Origin: Escherichia coli
GTDB lineage: Bacteria; Pseudomonadota; Gammaproteobacteria; Enterobacterales; Enterobacteriaceae
Assembly: GCF_003019035.1 (NCBI RefSeq)
Contig: NZ_CP027447.1
Reading direction: 5' to 3' (one strand)
Length of the DNA stretch: 64,000 nt
This document shows, piece by piece, positions 10,283 to 27,102 of the stretch (positions are counted from its first letter, which is position 1; every line of letters begins with the position of its first letter). Both the position numbers and the translations under genes were made by a program. The notes beneath the pieces were generated by a model. That model did no database searches, was not told where the DNA came from, and saw nothing but the letters and a program-made list of their open reading frames with translations.

Positions 10283-11236
10283 ATGTCTGATTACTTAAAA
10301 GGTAAACGTGTCGTTGATCCGGTACTGACCAGTATCGCCCGTGGCTATAAAAATGCCGCATTCATCGGCGAACGTATTTTCCCCGTCGTGCTGACGGACA
10401 AGGAAGGCGTGCGTGTACCGACCTTCGGGAAAACCGCCTTTGTGGAATATGACACCGAGCGCGCCGTCGGGGCGGACAGCAATGTTCTGGTCCGTGAGAA
10501 AACCGGCACGCTTGATCTGGTGCTGGGTGAACACGATCTGGCAGCGCCGGTGGATTACCGCGAACAGGCGGAGTCCATGTTTAACGAGGAGAGCAAGGCC
10601 ATCCGTCGCGCCACGAATGGCGTGAACCTGCGCCGTGAACTTATCGCTGCCCGTCTGGCTCAGGATGAAAAGGTCTACCGTACCGGACACGTCAAAAAAC
10701 TGACGTCCGGCGACCGCTGGGCCGGTGGTAAGGGTGACCCCATCGGGGTGATTGAAGCCGGTATGGAAGCGGTCCGTACGGCCACAGGGCTGCGTCCTAA
10801 CCTGATGACCATGGGTGCCGGCGTGATGGCGCTGCTGAAGTTCCATCCAGCACTTCAGGCAGCCATCGGAGCCAACGAGCGTAAGCGCATCACCACGGAG
10901 ATCCTGCAGGACCTCTTTCAGATCGAAGAGATCGTCATCGGTGCTCCTGTTTCCCTGCCATCCATGAAAGCGGCAATGGATAAAAACAGCGTGCCGGCGG
11001 ATATCTGGGGAGACAACCTGATGCTGCACTATGTCGGCAAACCGCAGCCCGGGGCGGACAGCGCGGACGAGAACGAGCCGTCCTTCGGCTACACTCTGCG
11101 TCGTAAGGGGATGCCTGTTGCTGACAAATACGACGGAGCCGGTGGCAAGGTGAAGTACTGCCGTTATACCGATATCTACAAAGTCGCCGTGGTTGGTGGC
11201 GATGCCGGGTATCTCATCACCGGTATCAGTAAATAA
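10283..11236 (+). CDS. major head subunit (Mu T-like), 317 aa
   Basis: Size, strong SD AAGGAG, position after protease/scaffold. Confidence 0.8.
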   Translation: MSDYLKGKRVVDPVLTSIARGYKNAAFIGERIFPVVLTDKEGVRVPTFGKTAFVEYDTERAVGADSNVLVREKTGTLDLVLGEHDLAAPVDYREQAESMFNEESKAIRRATNGVNLRRELIAARLAQDEKVYRTGHVKKLTSGDRWAGGKGDPIGVIEAGMEAVRTATGLRPNLMTMGAGVMALLKFHPALQAAIGANERKRITTEILQDLFQIEEIVIGAPVSLPSMKAAMDKNSVPADIWGDNLMLHYVGKPQPGADSADENEPSFGYTLRRKGMPVADKYDGAGGKVKYCRYTDIYKVAVVGGDAGYLITGISK

Positions 11237-12496: not shown

Positions 12497-12747
12497 TGAA
12501 AGAATACCGCTATTCCGGCCCGGCCAGCGGCGTCACGCTGTGGGACGGAACCGAAATCCTGCTCTGGCCGGGGAAGACGGTTTCCCTGCCGGAGGAGCAT
12601 GACTACGTGAAGGTACTGGTGGCGCTGAAGCATCTGACGCCGGTACCAGAAGATACTAAACCCGCCGTCACACCGGCAGTGCAGTCACCAAAGCGCAGAA
12701 GCAGCAGTGACAGCGAAGTGAAAACGGAGGACTCCCATGGCAGCTAA
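12496..12747 (+). CDS. small phage protein (Mu gp38-like position), 83 aa
   Basis: ATG 12496 overlapping upstream stop. Confidence 0.4.
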   Translation: MKEYRYSGPASGVTLWDGTEILLWPGKTVSLPEEHDYVKVLVALKHLTPVPEDTKPAVTPAVQSPKRRSSSDSEVKTEDSHGS

Positions 12748-14164
12748 CTATCTGCATGGCGTCGAAACCATTGAGGTGGAAAACGGAGCCCGCCCGGTTA
12801 AAACGGTGAAATCTGCCGTTATTGGCCTGATTGGTACCGCCCCGATGGGGGATGTCAATACGCTGGTACAGTGCCTGTCTGAGAAAGACGCTGCGGCATT
12901 TGGCAGCCAGTTCACCGGCTTTACCATTCCGCAGGCGCTGGATGCGATTTATGACCATGGTGCAGGCACCGTTCTGGTCATTAACGTACTCGATCCGTCT
13001 GTGCATAAAACCGCTGTGGTCAGTGAGAATGTGTCGTTCGACAAGGCGACAGGCAGAGCCCGGCTGGCTAATCCGGTGGTCGCGCAGCTGGTACTGAAAC
13101 CGGACAGCGACGGTCAGCCTTATGTTGAAGGTCAGGACTACTCGCTTGATGCACAGACCGGGGTGATTACTAACCTGGGTAAAAGCATTGCTGCAGATGC
13201 AACGGTGAAGGCCAGCTATAACTATGCTGATCCGACCAAAGTCACCCCGGCTGATATCATCGGTACCGTTAACGCTGCAGGCAACCGTACCGGCATGAAG
13301 CTGCTTAACGACAGTTTTAACCTGTTTGGCTACTTCGCCAAAATCCTGATTGCTCCGGTATTCTGCACCCAGAATAGCGTCTCGGTTGAGCTTATCGCCA
13401 TGGCTGAGAAACTGGGAGCAGTAACCTATATTGATGCGCCGGTTGGTACCACTTTTGCGCAGGCTCTGGCGGGACGTGGCCCGGAAGGCACCATTAACTT
13501 TAATACCAGCTCTGACCGTGTCCGCCTGTGCTACCCGCATGTGAAGGTATATGACCCGGTGACGAACACGGAGCGTCTGGAGCCACTGAGCCAGCGTGCG
13601 GCGGGCCTGCGTGCCAAAGTCGACCTGGACAAAGGGTACTGGTGGTCATCCTCCAATCAGGAAATTCTGGGGATCACCGGCGTGGAGCGCCAGCTGTCGG
13701 CAATGATTGACGATCCGCAGAGCGAGGTGAACCTGCTTAACGAACAGGGGATCACCACGGTATTCAGCAGTTACGGCAGCGGCCTTCGTCTGTGGGGTAA
13801 CCGGACGGCAGCATGGCCAACGGTCACCCATATGCGTAACTTTGAGAACGTTCGCCGCACCGGTGATGTGATCAACGAGTCCATTCGTTACTTCAGCCAG
13901 CAGTACATCGACATGCCGATTACTCAGGCGCTGATTGATGCACTGACGGAGTCGGTCAACGCCTACGGTCGCAAAATGACTGGTGATGGTGCGGTACTGG
14001 GCTTCCGTTGCTGGTTTGATCCGGCCCGCAATCCGGAGACGGAGCTGGCCGCCGGGCACCTGTTGCTGAGCTACAAATATACGCCACCACCGCCGCTGGA
14101 GCGACTGACGTTTGAGACTGAAATCACCTCGGAATACCTGTTAACCCTGAAAGGGGGCAACTGA
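12737..14164 (+). CDS. contractile tail sheath protein (Mu L-like), 475 aa
   Basis: Size, order, sheath-like sequence. Confidence 0.8.
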   Translation: MAANYLHGVETIEVENGARPVKTVKSAVIGLIGTAPMGDVNTLVQCLSEKDAAAFGSQFTGFTIPQALDAIYDHGAGTVLVINVLDPSVHKTAVVSENVSFDKATGRARLANPVVAQLVLKPDSDGQPYVEGQDYSLDAQTGVITNLGKSIAADATVKASYNYADPTKVTPADIIGTVNAAGNRTGMKLLNDSFNLFGYFAKILIAPVFCTQNSVSVELIAMAEKLGAVTYIDAPVGTTFAQALAGRGPEGTINFNTSSDRVRLCYPHVKVYDPVTNTERLEPLSQRAAGLRAKVDLDKGYWWSSSNQEILGITGVERQLSAMIDDPQSEVNLLNEQGITTVFSSYGSGLRLWGNRTAAWPTVTHMRNFENVRRTGDVINESIRYFSQQYIDMPITQALIDALTESVNAYGRKMTGDGAVLGFRCWFDPARNPETELAAGHLLLSYKYTPPPPLERLTFETEITSEYLLTLKGGN

Positions 14165-14685
14165 TGTCAAAGATTGAGATAAACCGAATCACGAATGCCA
14201 ACATCTATCTGGATGGTACTAACCTGCTGGGACGGGCTGAGGAAGTTAAACTCCCCGATGTCTCCATGATTATGCAGGAGCACAAGGCACTGGGGATGGT
14301 GGGTAAGGTGGAACTCCCGGCTGGTTTTGACAAACTGGAAGGCGAAATCAAATGGAACAGCTTTTACCGCGATGCGATGTTGTCTGCCGCGAACCCGTAC
14401 AGGTCGCTGGCGCTGCAGTGTCGCTCCAGCGTCCAGCGCTACAGCTCGCAGGGGCTGATCGACGAAATCCCGCTGGTCACCTTCCTGACAATTATGTTCA
14501 AGAAGAACCCGCTGGGGACGTTCAAACAGCACGAGAACGCCGAGTTCTCCAGTAGCTTCACCTGCACGTATATCAGACAGGTACTGGATGGTGAAGAGTT
14601 GCTGCAACTGGACTATCTGGCCAACATCTTCCGCGTCGGTGGCGTTGATCAACTGACTGACTATCGAATCAATATCGGGGGCTGA
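14164..14685 (+). CDS. tail tube protein (Mu M-like), 173 aa
   Basis: Size and position after sheath. Confidence 0.75.
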   Translation: MSKIEINRITNANIYLDGTNLLGRAEEVKLPDVSMIMQEHKALGMVGKVELPAGFDKLEGEIKWNSFYRDAMLSAANPYRSLALQCRSSVQRYSSQGLIDEIPLVTFLTIMFKKNPLGTFKQHENAEFSSSFTCTYIRQVLDGEELLQLDYLANIFRVGGVDQLTDYRINIGG

Positions 14686-14687
14686 CG

Positions 14688-14969
14688 GTGAGTGTTGAAC
14701 TGACTGACAAAGGAGGGCGATGTGCGTCACTGGGCATGTCAAATGGTACGTGGTTTACCCTCCTTGATATTCCGGGGGTGGAGACCCTCTTTAATACCCG
14801 TAAAACCAATGACCCGATTGACTGCACACGTTCAAAGGCCCGCAAACTGGCCGATTTGATTGAAGCATGGGAGCCGCCCGACCAGTGGTTCTCCGGCACC
14901 GGCAACTCTGAGGGAAAGGCGCTTCTCATCGCTTTCCTGCGTAACTGCAAGGGTTTTCGCACTTGCTGA
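14688..14969 (+). CDS. hypothetical protein, 93 aa, GTG start, followed by a terminator
   Basis: ORF immediately after tube stop; strong terminator directly downstream. Confidence 0.35.
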   Translation: MSVELTDKGGRCASLGMSNGTWFTLLDIPGVETLFNTRKTNDPIDCTRSKARKLADLIEAWEPPDQWFSGTGNSEGKALLIAFLRNCKGFRTC

Positions 14970-14976
14970 CATCACA

Positions 14977-14998
14977 GGGGCTCCGGCCCCTTCTTTTT
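14977..14998 (+). terminator. rho-independent terminator GGGGC-TCCG-GCCCC followed by TTCTTTTT
   Basis: GC stem plus T-tract read directly. Confidence 0.6.
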
Positions 14999-15066
14999 AA
15001 TCCCCTTTAATATCCGTCACGTCCACCGCCAGACATACTGCTCTGAATTTACAAAGGAGTATGATC

Positions 15067-15402
15067 ATGTCACAGACCCAGTCCGATACTTTTACGCTGT
15101 CTTATCCTTTCACCACTGCTGCAGGTACCAGAATTGAACAGATTGAACTGAAACGCCTGACAGTAAAAGACCTGAAGCAGGTGCGCAAAATCAACAAAGA
15201 CCCGACAGACTGGGACGAACCACTGATTGCCCGTAGCACCGGTATCCTCCCGGAAGACCTCGATAACATGGATCTTGCCGACTATATGGAGCTGCAGAAA
15301 CGATTTCAGAAAATCACTGGGCTGGGCAAGAGCGACAAAAACACTGATGCAGGCGCAGGGCCTGCTGGCGAGATGGTTCAGGTTTCAACCGGGGGAGATT
15401 GA
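15067..15402 (+). CDS. tail assembly chaperone (Mu gp41 position); SD AAGGAGT
   Basis: Position immediately upstream of tape measure. Confidence 0.55.
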   Translation: MSQTQSDTFTLSYPFTTAAGTRIEQIELKRLTVKDLKQVRKINKDPTDWDEPLIARSTGILPEDLDNMDLADYMELQKRFQKITGLGKSDKNTDAGAGPAGEMVQVSTGGD

Positions 15403-15484
15403 TGCCCTCGATACTGACGATCTGGAGATGTGGCTGGAGCAGGCTGAAGAGCAAATCAAAAGCGAGTTCGGCGACAATCAGTAA
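15227..15484 (+). CDS. overlapping +1/-2 frame ORF, probable frameshift extension of the tail assembly chaperone
   Basis: Open frame overlapping the 3' half of the chaperone gene with no SD of its own. Confidence 0.35.
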   Translation: MPVAPVSSRKTSITWILPTIWSCRNDFRKSLGWARATKTLMQAQGLLARWFRFQPGEIDALDTDDLEMWLEQAEEQIKSEFGDNQ

Positions 15485-15577
15485 CAACGTATCACTTAAC
15501 AGCCGCCAGTCGCGGCTGTTCTGCATGGGTTTCAGACACTTCCCTTCCGTTTTTTTTGCTTTCAGAGGATAGCCACC

Positions 15578-18043
15578 GTGGCCAGTGAATTTTCAGTCGG
15601 CGTCATTATTGGCGGCATTGTCGGGAGCAGCTTCCGCTCAGCCGTCAGTGGCACCCGACGCGCCCTTGATTCCCTTGGTGATACCTCCCGCCGTCTGCAG
15701 GAACGCCAGAATGCCTTAACCCGGGCAACAGAACGTTATGGTCAACTGGGTTCTTCCCGGATGCAGCATCTCAACAGCGAGTTGCTGCGGGTAAGCCGCA
15801 CCATGGAGCAAATTGAACGTCAGCAGCGCCGTCTGTCAGCAGTATCAGCCACCGGTGATGCGTTGAAGGCTAACCGCCTGGCGCTCTATGGTCAGGGTGC
15901 AGAAACCTATGCTATTGGCAGAACGCTGGGCGCACCGGTCATGGCCTCGGTTAAACAATATGCCTCGTTTGAATCACAGTTGCGGGATATCAGTGTCACA
16001 GGAGACCTGGATGCAAAACAGGAACGTGCAATTGGCCAGGCTATCAGACAGGCCTCGCTGAAGGTTAACCAACTGCAGGAGTCTCTGTTAGGGGGAGTCG
16101 GACAATTAGTTGCTGATGGTATGGCCCCCGAACGGGCAGCAACGTTTGCAGAGATGCTTGGAAAGACCGCTACAGCAACCAAAGCCGATATGACCGACCT
16201 TGCCAAAATGACTTATGCCTTCAGCGATGCACTCAGAATCACTGATGCGAAAGAACTTGAACAGGCGTTTGGTATTGCGGCAACAGGAGCCAAACTTGGG
16301 TCATTTGAGCTGAAGGATATGGCAAAAGCATTACCCGGTATGGCTAAAGCCTTCGCTGCTCGTGGTATTTATGGAAAAGATGCGATTACCCAGATTGTTG
16401 CCAGTCTGGAGGTCGGTAAAGGTAGTGGCTCTGCAGAGGAAGCGGTCACCAATATGTCCAACTGGCTGGCAGCAATGGGCCGCGGAGATACCATCCAGAA
16501 ATATGCTAAAGCCGGGGTGGATTACCAGGGGTCAATGCAGAATTACGTCGCTCAGGGTTTTTCGCAGTACGAAGCTTCACTGATGATTGCCAACCGTTTT
16601 ATCGACAGTAAAGGCAAAGCGTTCTTGCAGCAATGGAAAGCTGCAGGAGCAAGAGGCGATCAGGAAGGTCAGCAGAAACTCATGGAGTCATTTGGTCTGG
16701 CTGAGGTCTTTACCGATATTCAGACTGTCAACCATTTACTGTCAATGCGACAGGGCTGGGATAAATACCTTTCCAGTAAGCAGGAAATGAATGCTCCGGC
16801 TGCAATGTCTACCCTGGATAAGGATGCTGCAAAGCAGAATGATACGCTTGAAGGTCGCTGGCGCAGAATGCAGATCGGCTTTAATGATTCTGCTATCAGC
16901 ATCGGGCAATCCTTGCGTCCGGCTTTGCTCCAGTTGGGTGAAACATTTATTCCTTTAATGGACAGCGTCGGCAAATGGATAGCGGCAAATCCGCAGCTCG
17001 TCAGCAGCACCATAAAGGTTGTGGGCGCATTACTCGCTTTCAGGATGGCCACTATCGGTCTCAAGTTTGGGCTGAATCTCCTTATTTCCCCCTTTGTAAG
17101 CGTCTGGAAAAATGCTGTTTTACTTCGGGCCAACTGGCTTCGTCTGATGCTCGCACTGGGGGAAGGCGGTAAACTCCGCTGGCTGGTGACAGGCTTTGGT
17201 GCCGTCGCCAGAGGAGCCAGAACACTGGGGGGTGTGCTCTCAGGGGGGCTGGTTCGCGGAATTATGAGCGCCGGGCGTGCCGTTCTCTGGATTGGCCGGG
17301 CGCTGATGATGAATCCCATCGGTCTCGCTATCACCGCCGTCGCGGCAGCAGCTTACCTTATCTACCGCAACTGGGGCGCGGTCAGTAGCTGGTTTAAACA
17401 GCGCTGGGCTGACATTCAGGAAGCCTTTAACGGCGGTATCGCGGGAATTGGTAAACTGCTGGTTAACTGGTCTCCGGCAGGTCTGCTTTATAAAGCCTTT
17501 GCGGCTGCGCTGAAATATCTCGGCGTTGATTTGCCGGCGAAATTCACCGACTTCGGTGGTCATCTTATTGACGGGCTGATAAATGGCATCAGAAACAAAT
17601 GGGAGTCACTGAAAACCAGCATAACCGGAATGGGTGACAGCATCAGTGACTGGTTCAGCGAAAAGCTGGGCATCCATTCACCGAGTCGCGTGTTTATAGG
17701 CTTTGGTGACAATATCGCGCAGGGTGCCGCCATTGGCCTGCAACGGACCACTCCGCTTGCTGCACTGGCCGGGCAGCGCCTGGCCGCTGAAATGACACCG
17801 GATGTTCCCCGTATCCCGTCGCCGGAAATCATGGCTGCCGGATATTCAGGCCGTGGCGCAACGGCAACCGGCGGTGGAGCGTCTGGCGGTATCCAGGTCA
17901 GCTTTAATCCTCAGTTTTTCCTCAATGGTAAGGAAACCGCAGCGCCTGCCGGGCTGACTGGTGCCCTGAATATGAGCCTGCATGAGCTGGAAAAAATGCT
18001 GGAGCGTCTGCTGGCTCAGAAACAACGTAAGGAGTACAGCTGA
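15578..18043 (+). CDS. tail tape measure protein, 821 aa (GTG start)
   Basis: Length, Ala/Gly-rich repetitive sequence, position. Confidence 0.8.
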   Translation: MASEFSVGVIIGGIVGSSFRSAVSGTRRALDSLGDTSRRLQERQNALTRATERYGQLGSSRMQHLNSELLRVSRTMEQIERQQRRLSAVSATGDALKANRLALYGQGAETYAIGRTLGAPVMASVKQYASFESQLRDISVTGDLDAKQERAIGQAIRQASLKVNQLQESLLGGVGQLVADGMAPERAATFAEMLGKTATATKADMTDLAKMTYAFSDALRITDAKELEQAFGIAATGAKLGSFELKDMAKALPGMAKAFAARGIYGKDAITQIVASLEVGKGSGSAEEAVTNMSNWLAAMGRGDTIQKYAKAGVDYQGSMQNYVAQGFSQYEASLMIANRFIDSKGKAFLQQWKAAGARGDQEGQQKLMESFGLAEVFTDIQTVNHLLSMRQGWDKYLSSKQEMNAPAAMSTLDKDAAKQNDTLEGRWRRMQIGFNDSAISIGQSLRPALLQLGETFIPLMDSVGKWIAANPQLVSSTIKVVGALLAFRMATIGLKFGLNLLISPFVSVWKNAVLLRANWLRLMLALGEGGKLRWLVTGFGAVARGARTLGGVLSGGLVRGIMSAGRAVLWIGRALMMNPIGLAITAVAAAAYLIYRNWGAVSSWFKQRWADIQEAFNGGIAGIGKLLVNWSPAGLLYKAFAAALKYLGVDLPAKFTDFGGHLIDGLINGIRNKWESLKTSITGMGDSISDWFSEKLGIHSPSRVFIGFGDNIAQGAAIGLQRTTPLAALAGQRLAAEMTPDVPRIPSPEIMAAGYSGRGATATGGGASGGIQVSFNPQFFLNGKETAAPAGLTGALNMSLHELEKMLERLLAQKQRKEYS

Positions 18044-22876: not shown

Positions 22877-23845
22877 ATGGCAAATCTACCCGAAACCCCG
22901 CAGTGGGAAAGCGGCATCTACCAGATTGAGGTCTCTGACCCCGTTCTGGGCGGACCTGACGGAATTTCTAACCGCCAGGCTAAACAACTGGCCAGCCGAA
23001 CGTCATACCTCAAACAGAAGGTCGAAAAAAGCGGAACAGACCTGGCTGCACATATCGCGGCAGTTGACCCGCATACCCAGTACGCGACGAAAGCCAGTCC
23101 GACATTCACCGGCACACCAACAGCACCTACACCTGCAAATGGTGATAACAGCAAAAAGCTGGCGACGACGGAGTTTGTGGCCAAAGCACTTGCGGCACTT
23201 GCAGGCAGCGCCCCTGAGACACTGGATACGCTTAAAGAGCTGGCTGACGCTCTCGGTAATGATCCAAACTTTGCGACTACGGTACTGAACAAGCTGGCGG
23301 AAAAGCTGGCTAAAGACCAGAACGGCGCAGATATTCCTGAGCCTGCGCTGTTTGTCAAAAACCTTGGTTTGGGGGAAGGCTCTGCACTGCCCGTTGGTGT
23401 GCCCGTTCCGTGGCCCTTAGCAACACCACCAACGGGCTGGCTGAAATGTAACGGTGCAGCATTTTCTTCTGAAATGTACCCCAAACTGGCAAAAGCCTAC
23501 CCCGCGAATAAATTACCGGATTTACGCGGAGAATTTATCCGTGGCTGGGATGATGGGCGAGGAATTGATGCGGCACGCGCTTTATTGAGCATTCAAAACG
23601 GGATGTTGGAAAAACACCGCCATATTGTTGTAGCTAACGATGGATATGACACAAAAGATGAATGGGAGTTGGCTACGATTTTCAAAAAAACATATACACA
23701 AGGCAGGGGGCTTGATGCCACAAATACAGGAGGGAGTTTGACTCCATCACCAACGCTTCATTCACGAGGAAGTATTGGTAACACAGGTGGTAGTGAAACC
23801 CGCCCCCGCAATATTGCATTTAACTATATCGTGAGGGCGGCTTAG
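22877..23845 (+). CDS. tail fibre protein: constant N-terminal part fused to the variable C-terminal part currently in the + orientation
   Basis: Tail-fibre-like N-terminus; C-terminal ~155 aa lie inside the invertible segment. Confidence 0.75.
   Translation: MANLPETPQWESGIYQIEVSDPVLGGPDGISNRQAKQLASRTSYLKQKVEKSGTDLAAHIAAVDPHTQYATKASPTFTGTPTAPTPANGDNSKKLATTEFVAKALAALAGSAPETLDTLKELADALGNDPNFATTVLNKLAEKLAKDQNGADIPEPALFVKNLGLGEGSALPVGVPVPWPLATPPTGWLKCNGAAFSSEMYPKLAKAYPANKLPDLRGEFIRGWDDGRGIDAARALLSIQNGMLEKHRHIVVANDGYDTKDEWELATIFKKTYTQGRGLDATNTGGSLTPSPTLHSRGSIGNTGGSETRPRNIAFNYIVRAA
23361..23386 (+). other. gix/hix-like recombination site, left (TTGTCAAAAACCTTGGTTTGGGGGAA)
   Basis: Matches the AAACC-NN-GGTTT core of Gin/Hin sites; sits at the outer edge of the long inverted repeat. 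Confidence 0.55.
23371..23569 (+). repeat. inverted repeat, left copy (~200 bp, high identity to reverse complement of 24772..24978)
   Basis: Direct comparison of the two stretches; both encode GEGSALPVGVPVPWP...GRGID. Confidence 0.8.
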
Positions 23846-23851
23846 TTATAT

Positions 23852-24469
23852 TCAACTGGCTGCTGCCAGAGGCATTTCCGGCCAGTTGATATCCGGTGCA
23901 GTGCTGATGTCAGTCGCATTAAGCACATCTATGAAATCAAGCACGGCGTTTAGTTTTTCCGTCTCCTGGGGCGTCAATCGGCGTCCGGCTCGTAGTTTGA
24001 GATTTATAAGCTCAACAGATGCCATTGCCTGTTCCTCAAGTTGCTGACGATGCACTCCGGCAGCTTCCAGTTCTGCTGCGTGCTGTCGTCCCGCATCTGT
24101 CACCCAGGTCTCACCATCCCAGACATCATAGATAGTAGCTGGCTGTTTCACCGTCGTATCAGGAGGGTAATCTCCCGGTTGTGTGATTTGCACAGCGTTA
24201 CCATTCTCTGTGCTGTAAACCGTTTCGCCTCTGTGGTCTGGAACATATTTCCAGATGTTCTGGTCGGTATCACGACAGACAGCGAAGCCGGGGCGTTTTT
24301 CTGGTGGCGCGTCAATGCATGAGTGAGCCGGAATTCCAACACCATAAGCGAGATACTCAACAGTGGCAGAGAGATATTCACGGTTTTCAGCATCGTAGTT
24401 ATAAACGGTAATATCGCCTGCAGTTATAGCGATACCATTCTGATCAAGTACTGCAGCAGCATTATTCAT
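23852..24469 (-). CDS. tail fibre assembly protein (Tfa/U-like), 205 aa
   Basis: Tfa-like sequence; start overlaps stop of the inverted alternative fibre segment. Confidence 0.7.
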   Translation of the reverse strand: MNNAAAVLDQNGIAITAGDITVYNYDAENREYLSATVEYLAYGVGIPAHSCIDAPPEKRPGFAVCRDTDQNIWKYVPDHRGETVYSTENGNAVQITQPGDYPPDTTVKQPATIYDVWDGETWVTDAGRQHAAELEAAGVHRQQLEEQAMASVELINLKLRAGRRLTPQETEKLNAVLDFIDVLNATDISTAPDINWPEMPLAAAS

Positions 24470-24972
24470 TAAGTAGCCCTTACAATATAGTTAAACGCAA
24501 TATTACGGGGGCGGTTTTCCGTTCCTGTATTCCCTCCGTTGGCACCTAATCTATAAACACCACGAGTGCCAATAGCACGTAGTGAAGATGGAACTTTTAC
24601 ACCTGACTCATCTGTTTTAACAATCCCGCCATCACCGTATGTAGCCAGTATACCAGGGTTTGTTCCTGCACGGGTGCTATTTGCGGCAAGCCCTTCACCA
24701 GTCCATAACTCCATATAGTGAATATGATCTATAACCGAATGTGATTGTGCATTAAGCAAGGAACGCCCTGAATCAATTCCCCGCCCGTCATCCCAGCCGC
24801 GAATAAACTCACCCCGTAAATCCGGTAATTTATTCGCGGGGTAGGCTTTTGCCAGTTTGGGGTACATTTCAGAAGAAAATGCTGCACCGTTACATTTCAG
24901 CCACCCTGCTGGCGGTGTGGCTGAGGGCCACGGAACGGGCACACCAACGGGCAGTGCAGAGCCTTCCCCCAA
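24469..24972 (-). CDS. alternative tail fibre C-terminal segment (silent in this orientation; no own start expected)
   Basis: First 65 aa near-identical to internal part of the + strand fibre; different C-terminal ~100 aa ending in the same RPRNIAFNYIVRA motif. Confidence 0.65.
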   Translation of the reverse strand: MGEGSALPVGVPVPWPSATPPAGWLKCNGAAFSSEMYPKLAKAYPANKLPDLRGEFIRGWDDGRGIDSGRSLLNAQSHSVIDHIHYMELWTGEGLAANSTRAGTNPGILATYGDGGIVKTDESGVKVPSSLRAIGTRGVYRLGANGGNTGTENRPRNIAFNYIVRAT

Positions 24973-24978
24973 ACCAAC
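24772..24978 (-). repeat. inverted repeat, right copy
   Basis: Reverse complement matches 23371..23569. Confidence 0.8.
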
Positions 24979-24988
24979 GTTTTCGTCT
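24963..24988 (-). other. gix/hix-like recombination site, right (reads GACGAAAACGTTGGTTTGGGGGAA on the - strand)
   Basis: Same AAAC-NN-GGTTT core in inverted orientation. Confidence 0.5.
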
Positions 24989-25043
24989 TAACTCCCACCT
25001 ATACCAGCTATGTATTTTTAACAAAACAAAGAGGATATTTTTC

Positions 25044-25616
25044 ATGCAAATTGGCTACATTCGTGTGTCAACAAATGACCAGAATACAGATTTACAACGA
25101 AACGCACTGAACTGCGCAGGATGTGAACTGATTTTTGAGGATAAAATCAGCGGAACAAAGTCAGCCCGACCGGGATTGAAAAAGCTGCTCAGAACGTTAT
25201 CAGAAGGAGATACGCTCGTTGTCTGGAAGCTGGACAGGCTGGGCAGAAGCATGAAACACCTCATCACTCTTATTGAGGAACTGCGGGAAAAAGGGGTTAA
25301 CTTCCGTAGTCTTACAGACAGCATTGATACGTCAACACCCATGGGACGTTTCTTTTTTCACGTCATGGGGGCTTTAGCGGAAATGGAGCGTGAATTAATA
25401 GTTGAACGAACACTGGCCGGACTTGAAGCAGCACGTGCACAGGGGCGTATTGGTGGACGTCGTCCGAAACTGACAAAAGAGCAACATGAACAAATAGCAA
25501 GGCTGATCAAAAATGGCTATAGCAGGAAACAGTTGGCAATTATTTACGATATCGGTATATCGACGATTTATCGTTATCACCCTGTAGAGGAACTTCAAAC
25601 TCAAGCTGAGTTGTAA
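25044..25616 (+). CDS. Gin/Pin/Hin-family serine DNA invertase, 190 aa
   Basis: N-terminal MQIGYIRVSTNDQ catalytic-serine motif and near-identity of long blocks to Gin/Pin as I remember them; SD AAGAGGA. Confidence 0.85.
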   Translation: MQIGYIRVSTNDQNTDLQRNALNCAGCELIFEDKISGTKSARPGLKKLLRTLSEGDTLVVWKLDRLGRSMKHLITLIEELREKGVNFRSLTDSIDTSTPMGRFFFHVMGALAEMERELIVERTLAGLEAARAQGRIGGRRPKLTKEQHEQIARLIKNGYSRKQLAIIYDIGISTIYRYHPVEELQTQAEL

Positions 25617-25691
25617 TTCTTTTTCTGATATTGAAATGCCGCGGCGATGTAATTTATCTCACGGAAATAGGTACGTTTATCGCGCGGCGCA

Positions 25692-26204
25692 TCAATTCCT
25701 TTGTAAATCCAGCAAATCATCAATGCCAGTTTCACTTGCGGTATAAAAACTATCGGACTGAAAAACACACGGGCGACCTTGCTGATTAAAGGTCATCAGA
25801 ATCAAAAACGCGTTAGGTGCCAGACCATTTCCTGAAATACCCCGCCAGATAACCAGATCCTGAATGCCGTTACGATCAAGATCGGCACGGTAAAGTTGCG
25901 CATTACCCGCCATATTTTGCAGCACCCCCACAGGCACAGACCAGGATTTACCGGCGCGATCTTTACCGTTCAATTGCCATTCACTATCATCATTTGGCAT
26001 CTTTTCAAGCGTCACGCCAGCAACGCCGACTTTTCTAAAATGCCAGGTTTGCTCGGCATCATAAGGCATGGTCAGGAGAGGTTTCAGCGCCCGCTTTTGC
26101 GCGTATTCGCTGTCACTCATCGGCAGATATTCGGTAAAGCTGGTGGCCTGTGCAGGCAGCACTAAGCTCAATAAAAAAGCGCACATCCCTGTTCTGATGT
26201 TCAA
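25692..26204 (-). CDS. secreted hypothetical protein, 170 aa (signal peptide ...LSLVLPAQA), between invertase and hycI
   Basis: Signal-peptide-like N-terminus; TTG at 26204 or ATG at 26186 as start. No family recognised. Confidence 0.5.
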   Translation of the reverse strand: MNIRTGMCAFLLSLVLPAQATSFTEYLPMSDSEYAQKRALKPLLTMPYDAEQTWHFRKVGVAGVTLEKMPNDDSEWQLNGKDRAGKSWSVPVGVLQNMAGNAQLYRADLDRNGIQDLVIWRGISGNGLAPNAFLILMTFNQQGRPCVFQSDSFYTASETGIDDLLDLQRN

Positions 26205-26228
26205 TTCCCTGAATTCCTTACTGAAAAA

Positions 26229-26699
26229 CTACTCTTCTTCCACCGCTAACTGCGCGAAGCCGCCGTTCCCTTCCCAGCCTTCCAGACGTTGATAAACGGT
26301 TTCCACCGCATCTTTAATCGGCTGGGTCATCGGGTAGTAAAAGCCGACGATATCCGGCTGGATGCCGAGGAAAATCACTTCGCCAATGTCTTCTTTCAAC
26401 TGGTCGATAAGGTAGTTCAGCGGCATGTTATGGGTAGTCATCATAAACATCTCGGCGATGTCATCCGGGTCGATGATGCGGATCTCGCCGGGGTTTAGCC
26501 CCATATCCGTGGCGTCGACAATCAGCAGTCGTGTCGGGCGCAGTTCACGGATGGCGACGATATCGTTTTCCGGTGCGCTACCGCCGTCAATCACCACCCA
26601 GTTACCTTTCGGCGCGGCGGCGCACTTTTCCGCCAGCAGCGGGCCTGCGCCATCATCGCCCATCATGCTATTGCCAACACAGAGTAAAACGTCAGTCAC
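26229..26699 (-). CDS. hycI: hydrogenase 3 maturation protease
   Basis: Recognised E. coli protein sequence; operon context. Confidence 0.9.
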   Translation of the reverse strand: MTDVLLCVGNSMMGDDGAGPLLAEKCAAAPKGNWVVIDGGSAPENDIVAIRELRPTRLLIVDATDMGLNPGEIRIIDPDDIAEMFMMTTHNMPLNYLIDQLKEDIGEVIFLGIQPDIVGFYYPMTQPIKDAVETVYQRLEGWEGNGGFAQLAVEEE

Positions 26700-27102
26700 G
26701 CAATCTCCTCACCATCAAATAGATGGCATTTTCCTGATAAATATCATGCAGCATACTTAACAGCATGGTACTCCATTCTTTCTGCTGCGAAGTTTGCGCT
26801 GCCCGGGCTTTATCGAATGCGTTAGCCAGCATCGGCACATGGTTAATGTCGATGACGATCTCACCGTACTTCGGCACGCCTTCCATTTTACGGCGGGCTT
26901 CACTGCCCGCCTCCAGAGTGGCAATCCATGCCAGATATTCATCCCACGGGCAGGTGAGCGCGGCTTCCAGGCAATCGATAACCCCAAGGTGGTGACCAAT
27001 CGCCAGGCTGTAATAGACCACCTGCTGCGCCTCGGCGGGCGTGGCATCGTTCTCATCAATAAATTTACGGCTCAGTTGACTGAACACCACCTTTTCACTC
27101 AT
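26692..27102 (-). CDS. hycH: formate hydrogenlyase maturation protein HycH
   Basis: Sequence and gene order. Confidence 0.9.

Follow-up and report, generated by a model that had tools for sequence, protein, structure and literature searches.

The DNA analysed here, called the window throughout, is a stretch of 64,000 nucleotides (nt) from contig NZ_CP027447.1 of the Escherichia coli RefSeq assembly GCF_003019035.1, and our subject is the tail assembly chaperone gene that lies in it together with a second open reading frame (ORF) that overlaps the end of this gene. The locus is best read as a tail assembly chaperone pair of the E/E+E' type in a Mu-like prophage with a P2-type contractile tail. 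Comparison with related sequences leads us to conclude that programmed ribosomal frameshifting very probably gives the prophage a second, longer form of the chaperone. The slip that gives this fusion is, we think, likely to be a +1 slip on the tetramer UUU_C at 15304-15307, about 95 bases upstream of the chaperone stop codon, and not a Mu-style -2 slip on the run of G residues close to that stop codon.

The chaperone ORF is in frame 1 of the window, which is referred to as frame 0 from here on, and it runs from 15061 or 15067 to 15402. The alternative ATG at 15061 is only 1 nt past the Shine-Dalgarno (SD) sequence AAGGAG (15054-15059), which was read from the sequence and stands 7 nt before ATG 15067, and RefSeq relatives begin at the equivalent of ATG 15067. 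The ORF from 15067 to 15402 is 111 codons long, it codes for the short product that is the equivalent of P2 gpE, and it is on the plus strand as are all the other parts of the locus described below. It matches the Pfam family PF10109 (Phage_TAC_7), whose title is 'Phage tail assembly chaperone proteins, E, or 41 or 14', with an E-value of 4.6e-22 over residues 10-84 counted from 15061, and the annotation of a RefSeq relative, WP_000084230.1, spans the same range as the chaperone in the window. An earlier note on this DNA, made from its letters alone, had named the gene a tail assembly chaperone and this is borne out by the Pfam match. The second ORF is in frame 2, which is +1 or equivalently -2 relative to the chaperone, and is open from 15227 to the TAA at 15482-15484. 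The coordinates that had been given for it are all correct: it overlaps the chaperone ORF by 176 nt and extends 82 nt past its stop codon, and the two ORFs lie directly 5' of the tape measure gene that starts at 15578. The chance of finding an open frame of 85 codons is (61/64)^85 or about 0.017, which is mildly unlikely by itself; the evidence for the second frame that comes from comparing related sequences is much stronger than that from the length of the ORF.

The frame that is under selection was determined with 28 non-redundant representatives that are less than 96% identical to each other and that were aligned without gaps. Single-base codon differences between pairs of sequences were scored, and the fraction of these that is synonymous was calculated for each interval and for each frame. 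From 15187 to 15303 the synonymous fraction was 0.72 in frame 0 and 0.13 in each of the +1 and -1 frames, and from 15310 to 15321 it was 0.52, 0.17, and 0.00 in frames 0, +1, and -1, respectively. In the same order of frames, the fractions were 0.17, 0.56, and 0.30 from 15320 to 15346, 0.18, 0.61, and 0.04 from 15347 to 15372, 0.02, 0.96, and 0.16 from 15373 to 15402, and 0.11, 0.61, and 0.15 from 15403 to 15481. Selection on the -1 frame was not seen in any interval tested in these representatives. Judged by these fractions, selection passes from frame 0, where it extends to about 15309, to the +1 frame, where it extends from about 15320 to 15481, so that the switch falls between about 15309 and 15320. 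The selected part of frame 0, as delimited by the Pfam envelope and the synonymous fractions, is the PF10109 domain at 15088-15312 that ends in ...LQKRFQK. The remainder of the annotated chaperone (15322-15402) is unselected in frame 0, with fractions that are no better than those of the -1 frame and a frame-0 fraction of 0.22 over 15322-15372. These 27 or so final codons look like a by-product of coding in the +1 frame. The stop codon of frame 0 is mobile among relatives, lying at 15379, 15394 or 15400, and in distant clades only 6-8 codons past the TTT codon at which we place the shift.

What is selected in the +1 frame is a coding segment of 58 codons followed by TAA (15308-15484), and the synonymous fractions and the matches to phrog_8286 and PF06528 mark it as a probable homologue of P2 E'. 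The peptide matches phrog_8286 with an E-value of 1.4e-30, and phrog_10636 matches this peptide and P2 E' alike. PF06528, the Pfam model that recognises the E' part of gpE+E' in P2, matches the peptide from the window weakly, with 16.4 bits and an E-value of 0.0065 that is under the cut-off of 23 bits, and it matches 19 of 33 diverse peptides of the family at E-values up to 0.01, the best being 4.6e-6. Relatives from Salmonella, Ralstonia, and Pseudomonas, whose chaperones are 26-48% identical, keep the +1-frame peptide ...LLARWFRFQP(G/S)EID..L...W....QIK..., and its homologues in P2 and a Mu-like phage of Pasteurella are encoded in the -1 frame. A wider set of 137 unique relatives was assembled from three IMG/VR scans and from GenBank hits, and comprises phages and prophages of Escherichia, Klebsiella, Salmonella, Ralstonia, and Pseudomonas and IMG/VR contigs. 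The E' frame is the +1 frame in 136 of these 137, and the remaining one is an in-frame fusion. The earlier note had made its reading depend on conservation of the second-frame ORF, and conservation was found in this set of 137. As it had also reported, the ORF is in the +1/-2 frame. The ORF has no conserved start codon, and that such an ORF is conserved as a protein makes a programmed shift into the +1 frame very likely. That much of the earlier frameshift reading stands, while its match to the -2 shift of Mu is unsupported.

The in-frame fusion is the metagenomic locus L134 (IMGVR_UViG_3300002920_000058, 601-975), in which the chaperone domain and E' are in a single frame (...AFRAMLDTGDDLWRAAGLLARWFRFQPSEID...) and the linker lacks 1 nt when compared with that of L153 and L178, the nearest relatives. 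Either L134 is a natural variant that produces the fusion alone, or it reflects an error in sequencing. Ten or so database proteins of about 138 amino acids also span the whole fusion. The fused entries (P0001-P0012, P0015, and P0020) are from public assemblies, mostly Logan, and some of them need two successive shifts. Because their junctions fall at several different homopolymers (A5, G3, G4, and G5), we read them as sequencing indels at homopolymers and rejected them as 'Rosetta stone' evidence for the fusion. Erroneous fused entries of this kind could mislead searches for the frameshift junction.

The proposed frameshift cassette is CGA_UUU_CAG at 15301-15309, in which the slippery tetramer is UUU_C at 15304-15307, and it is nearly invariant even at third positions. 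The entropies of the three positions of its codons are 0/0/0.22, 0/0/0, and 0/0/0.44, as compared with 0.7-1.9 bits at neighbouring third positions. In all 137 unique relatives the Phe codon is TTT, never TTC, and the next base is C, whereas the other Phe codons of the same genes are TTT in 288 cases and TTC in 238. The codon that follows TTT in these relatives is CAG in 75, CGG in 22, CGC in 16, CTG in 11, CAA in 9, and another codon in 4. CGA was considered as a universal E-site codon and rejected, as it is kept in the enteric and Ralstonia-like clades only (98 of 137) and is replaced by GTG, GCC, TCC, and others in the remaining clades.

Where the shift can take place is bounded on both sides. 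Stop codons in the +1 frame end 8 nt before TTT in four relatives (L005, L007, L111, and L128), the earliest frame-0 stop codons are 18 nt past TTT (in L187 and L190), and a Trp codon in the +1 frame, 4-6 codons after TTT, is at least 90% conserved across the 33 diverse E' peptides; in the window this Trp is TGG 15323-15325, which is invariant in the 28 representatives. The stop codons in both frames and the conserved Trp confine the putative shift to an interval of about 20 nt, from about -8 to +12 nt around the Phe codon. TTT_C is the sole slippery element inside this permitted interval that is common to all lineages. On UUU_C the tRNA-Phe re-pairs perfectly after a +1 slip, while re-pairing after a -2 slip is unavailable at this site, the -2 codon being GAU from UUU and UUC from CAG. 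The site has the form UUU_Y: a pyrimidine comes after a frame-0 UUU, and the +1 frame is open, here from 15227. Sequences of the form UUU_Ynn are especially prone to +1 shifting in bacteria, and known cases of UUU_Y are YopN-TyeA and influenza PA-X with UCC_UUU_CGU (PMC5009743). In an E. coli cell-free system, TTT_C also ranks with the most efficient +1 tetramers (bioRxiv 10.1101/2025.10.02.679949). As read from aligned sequences, the comparative analysis gives the architecture of the fusion, the frame that is used on each side of the junction, the narrow interval for the shift, and the invariance of UUU_C.

Several observations weigh against a +1 slip on UUU_C, the lack in this clade of anything that would stimulate it among them. 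No conserved RNA structure was found within about 100 nt of the site with RNAalifold in the 28 representatives, the energy being about 0, and single-sequence folds around the site when compared with shuffled sequences gave z-scores of -1.3 to +0.8, which are not significant. No SD-like element at the spacing seen in RF2 is present in the clade to which the window belongs, the only GGAG upstream of the site is 12 nt away and unconserved, and the A-site codon CAG is not rare. Since no stimulator is found in this clade, the efficiency of the shift would depend on the tetramer alone. In 23 of the 137 relatives an SD-like 4-mer, GAGG or AGGAG, does lie 2-4 nt upstream of UUU, which is an RF2-like spacing, and these are in the Pseudomonas-like and 'GAG_UCC_UUU_CGC' clades. 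The carriers, which have UUU_CGG or UUU_CGC, are at loci L111-L127, L142, L155, L159, L189, L192, L198, and L201. The tetramer is also not unique to the site, there being 169 further TTT_C in these genes. Because the compared sequences are phylogenetically related, a count such as 137 of 137 contains fewer independent observations than it suggests. Lastly, the residual synonymous change in frame 0 at 15310-15321 (0.52, compared with 0.17 in the +1 frame) means that within the window's clade alone the slip could sit a few codons downstream, and unconserved tetramers that are compatible with a +1 slip, AAA_A at 15310-15313 and GGG_C at 15319-15322, are in fact present within 18 nt.

A rival reading is a +1 slip at a tetramer specific to this phage, namely at AAA_A 15310-15313, GGG_C 15319-15322 or GGG_C 15358-15361, of which the first two would give the alternative junctions FQK-SLGW and ITG-W, respectively. 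AAA_A allows perfect +1 re-pairing and is in the list of efficient +1 tetramers (bioRxiv 10.1101/2025.10.02.679949), and both it and the first GGG_C are inside the interval that is permitted for this clade, in which some frame-0 selection persists at 15310-15321. However, none of the three is conserved: AAA_A is found only in the CAGAAA variants among 59 sequences of the enteric clade, and in place of the GGG at 15319 L004 has AGC and L030 has AAG. The site at 15358-15361 is, moreover, downstream of the conserved +1-frame Trp at 15323-15325 and of the frame-0 stop codons of L030 and L049. We rejected both this site (GGG_C/GGG_G) and the A5 run at 15337-15341 as shift sites because L030 and L049 stop upstream of them in frame 0 and because neither is conserved. 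A slip at any of these phage-specific tetramers is in our view very unlikely.

The earlier note had suggested that a Mu-type slippery motif be sought in 15227-15400, and what is found there is a look-alike that is not conserved. It is the G5 run at 15391-15395 in ACC_GGG_GGA_GAT_TGA, which in the +1 frame encodes Pro-Gly-Glu of E'. A Mu-type shift at this run would be a -2 slip of tRNA-Gly from GGA 15394-15396 to GGG 15392-15394, or else a +1 slip from GGG 15391-15393, and its product, ...VSTG(G)-EIDALDT..., would owe only about 28 residues to the +1 frame. The run was our first guess from the sequence and the comparison with Mu, and with good reason: C_GGG_GGA_GA at 15390-15398 is similar to the verified CGG_GGG_CGA of Mu, either slip permits good re-pairing, the run is in the usual expected position of two codons before the frame-0 stop, and several database proteins (P0003-P0005 and P0007-P0009) are fused exactly at it. 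In addition, the 10-mer of Mu by itself gives 14% shifting in vitro (bioRxiv 10.1101/2025.10.02.679949). It was dropped after the relatives were compared. The G-run is missing in relatives of the Salmonella, Ralstonia, and Pseudomonas types, which have CCN_AGT_GAG instead, and in 11 of the 28 representatives the frame-0 stop is at 15379, before the G-run, and in others it is earlier, yet the +1 ORF is still intact. Selection in the +1 frame begins about 70 nt or about 23 codons before the G-run and covers residues that are homologous to P2 E', WFRFQP being aligned with FHWPPS. The pattern C_GGG_GGA_GA is not enriched in the window, where 4 are found and 2.25 are expected, and the database fusions occur at A5, G3, and G4 runs also, as sequencing indels would give. 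Judged by its distribution among relatives, then, the Mu-like G-run near the stop is a decoy, and that the fusion is made there is highly improbable, though the run may give an incidental minor extra shift in this phage. Choosing the shift site by motif alone would yield the wrong junction.

The same comparisons bear on whether a frameshift is needed at all. It is barely credible that E' is instead a separate small protein translated from a +1-frame start of its own, either ATG 15347 or TTG 15227, even though ATG 15347 does exist in the window, gene callers have called ORFs of the E' type in phage genomes, and phrog_8286 is a 54-position profile of such ORFs. ATG 15347 is present in just 9 of the 28 representatives and an SD-like motif in only 2 of those 9, no +1-frame start codon is conserved anywhere in 15305-15400, and both the onset of +1 selection and the invariant Trp are upstream of ATG 15347. 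TTG 15227 is situated where frame 0 and not the +1 frame is selected, and many relatives have +1 stop codons downstream of it. P2 produces its homologous E' as part of a fusion (GenBank annotation; PMC3091744). L134, furthermore, carries both parts in one frame.

An extremely unlikely alternative to a ribosomal slip is that slippage by RNA polymerase yields a minority of mRNAs in the E' frame; it would produce an identical protein architecture, but the conserved element is just three T residues. RNA polymerase is not known to slip without much longer homopolymers, and the longer runs nearby, A5 at 15337-15341 and G5 at 15391-15395, are unconserved. Transcriptional slippage is used in some analogous systems (PMC5009743).

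For the +1 slip on UUU_C, the proposed mechanism is as follows. Most ribosomes would stay in frame 0 from 15067 onward and produce the short form, the 111 amino acids encoded by 15067-15402, whose functional part would end at about ...LQKRFQKITG. A minority would slip by +1 with the peptidyl-tRNA-Phe on UUU 15304-15306, the anticodon re-pairing with UUC 15305-15307, and would resume reading in the +1 frame at AGA 15308 and end at TAA 15482. The long form would therefore be encoded by 15067-15306 and 15308-15481 and would be a protein of 138 amino acids, M...LQKRF-RKSLGW...LLARWFRFQPGEIDAL...GDNQ. By analogy with gpG/gpGT of lambda and gpE/gpE+E' of P2, the N-terminal domain common to both forms would bind or coat the tape measure protein and the recruitment of tube subunits would fall to the rare C-terminal extension, with the ratio of the short to the long form being fixed by the frequency of the slip. 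That the slip is ribosomal and is by +1, how efficient it is, and how labour is divided between the two domains are what we infer beyond the alignments.

Among known systems the closest to the one in the window is gpE/gpE+E' of P2. The two genes are in the same place, after the gene for the tube (FII) and before that for the tape measure protein (T), and P2 gpE has the PF10109 domain at its N-terminus as does the chaperone in the window, with E-values of 1.5e-12 and 4.6e-22, respectively. PF06528 and phrog_10636 match the extension in both, the PF06528 match in the window being weak and below the cut-off. In both, the extension ORF is without a start codon of its own and the shift site is at the C-terminal edge of the PF10109 domain, and neither shows a downstream hairpin (for P2, PMC3091744). 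Both gpE and gpE+E' of P2 are annotated as essential tail proteins. The difference is in the slip itself, which in P2 is -1 on U_UUU_UUG (TTTTTTG) and in the window would be +1 on UUU_C, the window being without the run of six T residues. Going by the MAFFT alignment and the Pfam coordinates, the P2 site lies about 3 codons past the Phe codon of the window and is thus on a different codon; that P2 slips on the same Phe codon was rejected for that reason. Past the shift site, frame 0 continues for 31 unselected codons in the window and for 8 in P2, and, unlike that of P2, the E' ORF of the window does not overlap the start of the tape measure gene and is separated from it by a gap of 93 nt.

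The likeness to gp41/gp41-42 of Mu is in the second frame, which is +1/-2, in the position of the chaperone 5' of the tape measure gene, and in the CGGGGG run. Mu gp41, however, belongs mainly to PF23746 (E-value 9e-35) and its PF10109 match of 24.7 bits is below the cut-off of 25 bits, whereas the chaperone in the window matched PF10109 only and was not assigned to PF23746. The gp41-42 extension does not match PF06528. The verified -2 site of Mu, CGG_GGG_CGA (GenBank note), is 7 codons before the gp41 stop, and the G-run of the window is in another codon phase, is unconserved, and is downstream of the onset of +1 selection.

The proposed site itself resembles the UUU_Y sites, those being UUU_Ynn in E. 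coli, YopN-TyeA in Yersinia, and UCC_UUU_CGU in PA-X of influenza A virus. In all of them a pyrimidine comes after the P-site UUU and no stop codon is adjacent, and some relatives, carriers of the SD-like 4-mer among them, have UCC_UUU_CGC, which is nearly the influenza cassette. The known cases are in unrelated genes, and here the A-site codon is usually CAG, which is not rare. In a phage tail operon such a site would act as a conserved means of setting the ratio of structural gene products. A +1 slip of the P-site tRNA also takes place in E. coli prfB, which codes for RF2, but the site in the window has no in-frame A-site stop codon, no SD-like element at the RF2 spacing, and no autoregulatory logic. 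The gpG/gpGT pair of lambda has the same gene position and the same logic of two products with a common N-terminus. The likeness meant is one of position and logic, and lambda differs in that the slip is -1 on the heptamer G_GGA_AAG and the tail is non-contractile. The paradigm of tail-chaperone frameshifting, lambda G/GT, is reportedly due to Xu and co-workers in 2004. Lambda makes gpG and gpGT in a set ratio of about 30:1; the binding partner of G is the tape measure protein, and that of the T part is the major tail subunit (PMC5009743).

Other phages with PF10109 chaperones appear to reach a homologous E'-like extension by a shift in either direction at the C-terminal edge of the domain. 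A -1 slip on A_AAU_UUU is present in Burkholderia phage Mica (L211), HeidiAbel_Bas97 (L209), and Serratia phage MQ-4 (L212), and a -1 slip on G_GGA_AAG in Pasteurella phage AFS-2018a (L006). Of these four records, that of Mica alone annotates the frameshift product. A +1 slip on UUU_C would be used also in the Pseudomonas phages Bise and Komp_PAO1_1.

Tail-chaperone frameshifting is a textbook case of recoding, and to our knowledge the characterised examples are almost all -1 on heptamers, with Mu as the -2 exception. It is well established and occasional +1 cases are included (PMC5009743). What appears to be new here is the combination of UUU_Y with a tail-chaperone shift as a deeply conserved and unannotated device in a large family, and the evidence that a Mu-like motif is a decoy appears to be new as well. 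We found no account of a +1 chaperone shift on UUU_C for this family in the searchable literature, which lacks the papers of Xu et al. 2004 and Christie et al. 2002. NCBIfam and a sequence search of the PDB yielded no hits either. In none of the related public records of the +1 clade that were examined is the long product annotated, only a 'phage tail assembly protein'. The annotated relatives end in about 27 residues of what appears to be an overprinting by-product and are without the essential long form.

Taking the family as a whole, we consider the chances evenly balanced that a minimal programmed +1 shift on UUU_C serves a large clade of tail chaperones of the P2 gpE/E' type, found in prophages and phages, Mu-like and related, of hosts that include Enterobacteriaceae, Pseudomonas, and Ralstonia. 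In the clade of the window it would work without help from an RNA structure, an SD-like element, a rare codon or a stop codon, while sister lineages reach the homologous extension by -1 shifts on U_UUU_UUG, A_AAU_UUU or G_GGA_AAG within a few codons of the same domain boundary. If this is true, the family is a natural series for the evolution of the direction of frameshifting, in which some relatives add an RF2-like SD element and others use -1 heptamers at the same domain boundary. A bare UUU_C that is kept over such deep divergence would be a clean natural case in bacteria of a programmed +1 shift that is poor in stimulators.

The chaperone gene is part of a contractile-tail module at 12.7-19.2 kb of the window, in which the gene order is sheath, tube, small ORF, PF10109 chaperone, tape measure, gpU, and gpX. 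The sheath gene (12737-14164) matches PF04984/PF17482 and is followed by the tail tube gene of the P2 FII type (14164-14685, plus strand; PF04985, E-value 2.9e-53), which is 5' of the chaperone gene, and by the small ORF of 93 amino acids (14688-14969) that lies between the tube and chaperone genes. The tape measure gene (15578-18043, plus strand) codes for a protein of 821 amino acids and was identified by a match to PF10145 (E-value 8e-16) and by the RefSeq annotation of a relative, and the gpU-like and gpX-like genes complete the module. The chaperone gene thus has the position between the tube and tape measure genes that is typical of lambda G/GT.

Two hairpins flank the chaperone locus. 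A terminator-like hairpin (AGGGGCTCCGGCCCCT then TCTTTTTAAT) is at 14976-15001, between the ORF of 93 amino acids and the chaperone gene, and could be a partial terminator, by which the chaperone and tape measure genes would be expressed less than the sheath and tube genes. Cluster O mycobacteriophages have a terminator following the major tail gene (PMC4351075). A perfect hairpin of 9 base pairs (AACAGCCGC-CAGUC-GCGGCUGUU) is at 15498-15520, shortly past the E' stop codon in the gap of 93 nt before the tape measure gene. No U tract directly follows it, a run of eight T residues being about 30 nt further on (15550-15557), and a similar palindrome is apparently present in relative L001.

The nearest phage records are Escherichia phage PhiKM, which its depositor placed under Bcepmuvirus, and Klebsiella phage KP12, each with about 90% identity, and relatives are present in 641 of 5,426 complete E. 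coli genomes. A stretch that is 99.7% identical is in the chromosome of E. coli A31 within a prophage that carries Mu-type head genes. The gene at the position of the major capsid gene is intact in the window (10283-11236, 317 amino acids) and is flagged 'frameshifted', that is, as a pseudogene, in the A31 prophage (locus L208, 10281-11236). In the ungapped comparison the window and A31 do not match position for position beyond about 23 kb. In A31 (L208, 24324-27014) tail-fibre and assembly genes are in opposite orientations beside a gene for a 'recombinase family protein', which suggests an invertible host-range cassette like the G segment of Mu, and in the analogous area of the window, about 23800-27000, there are ORFs on the minus strand. 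The A31 prophage adjoins a truncated gene for a SAM-dependent methyltransferase, which is followed by yccX-tusE-yccA.

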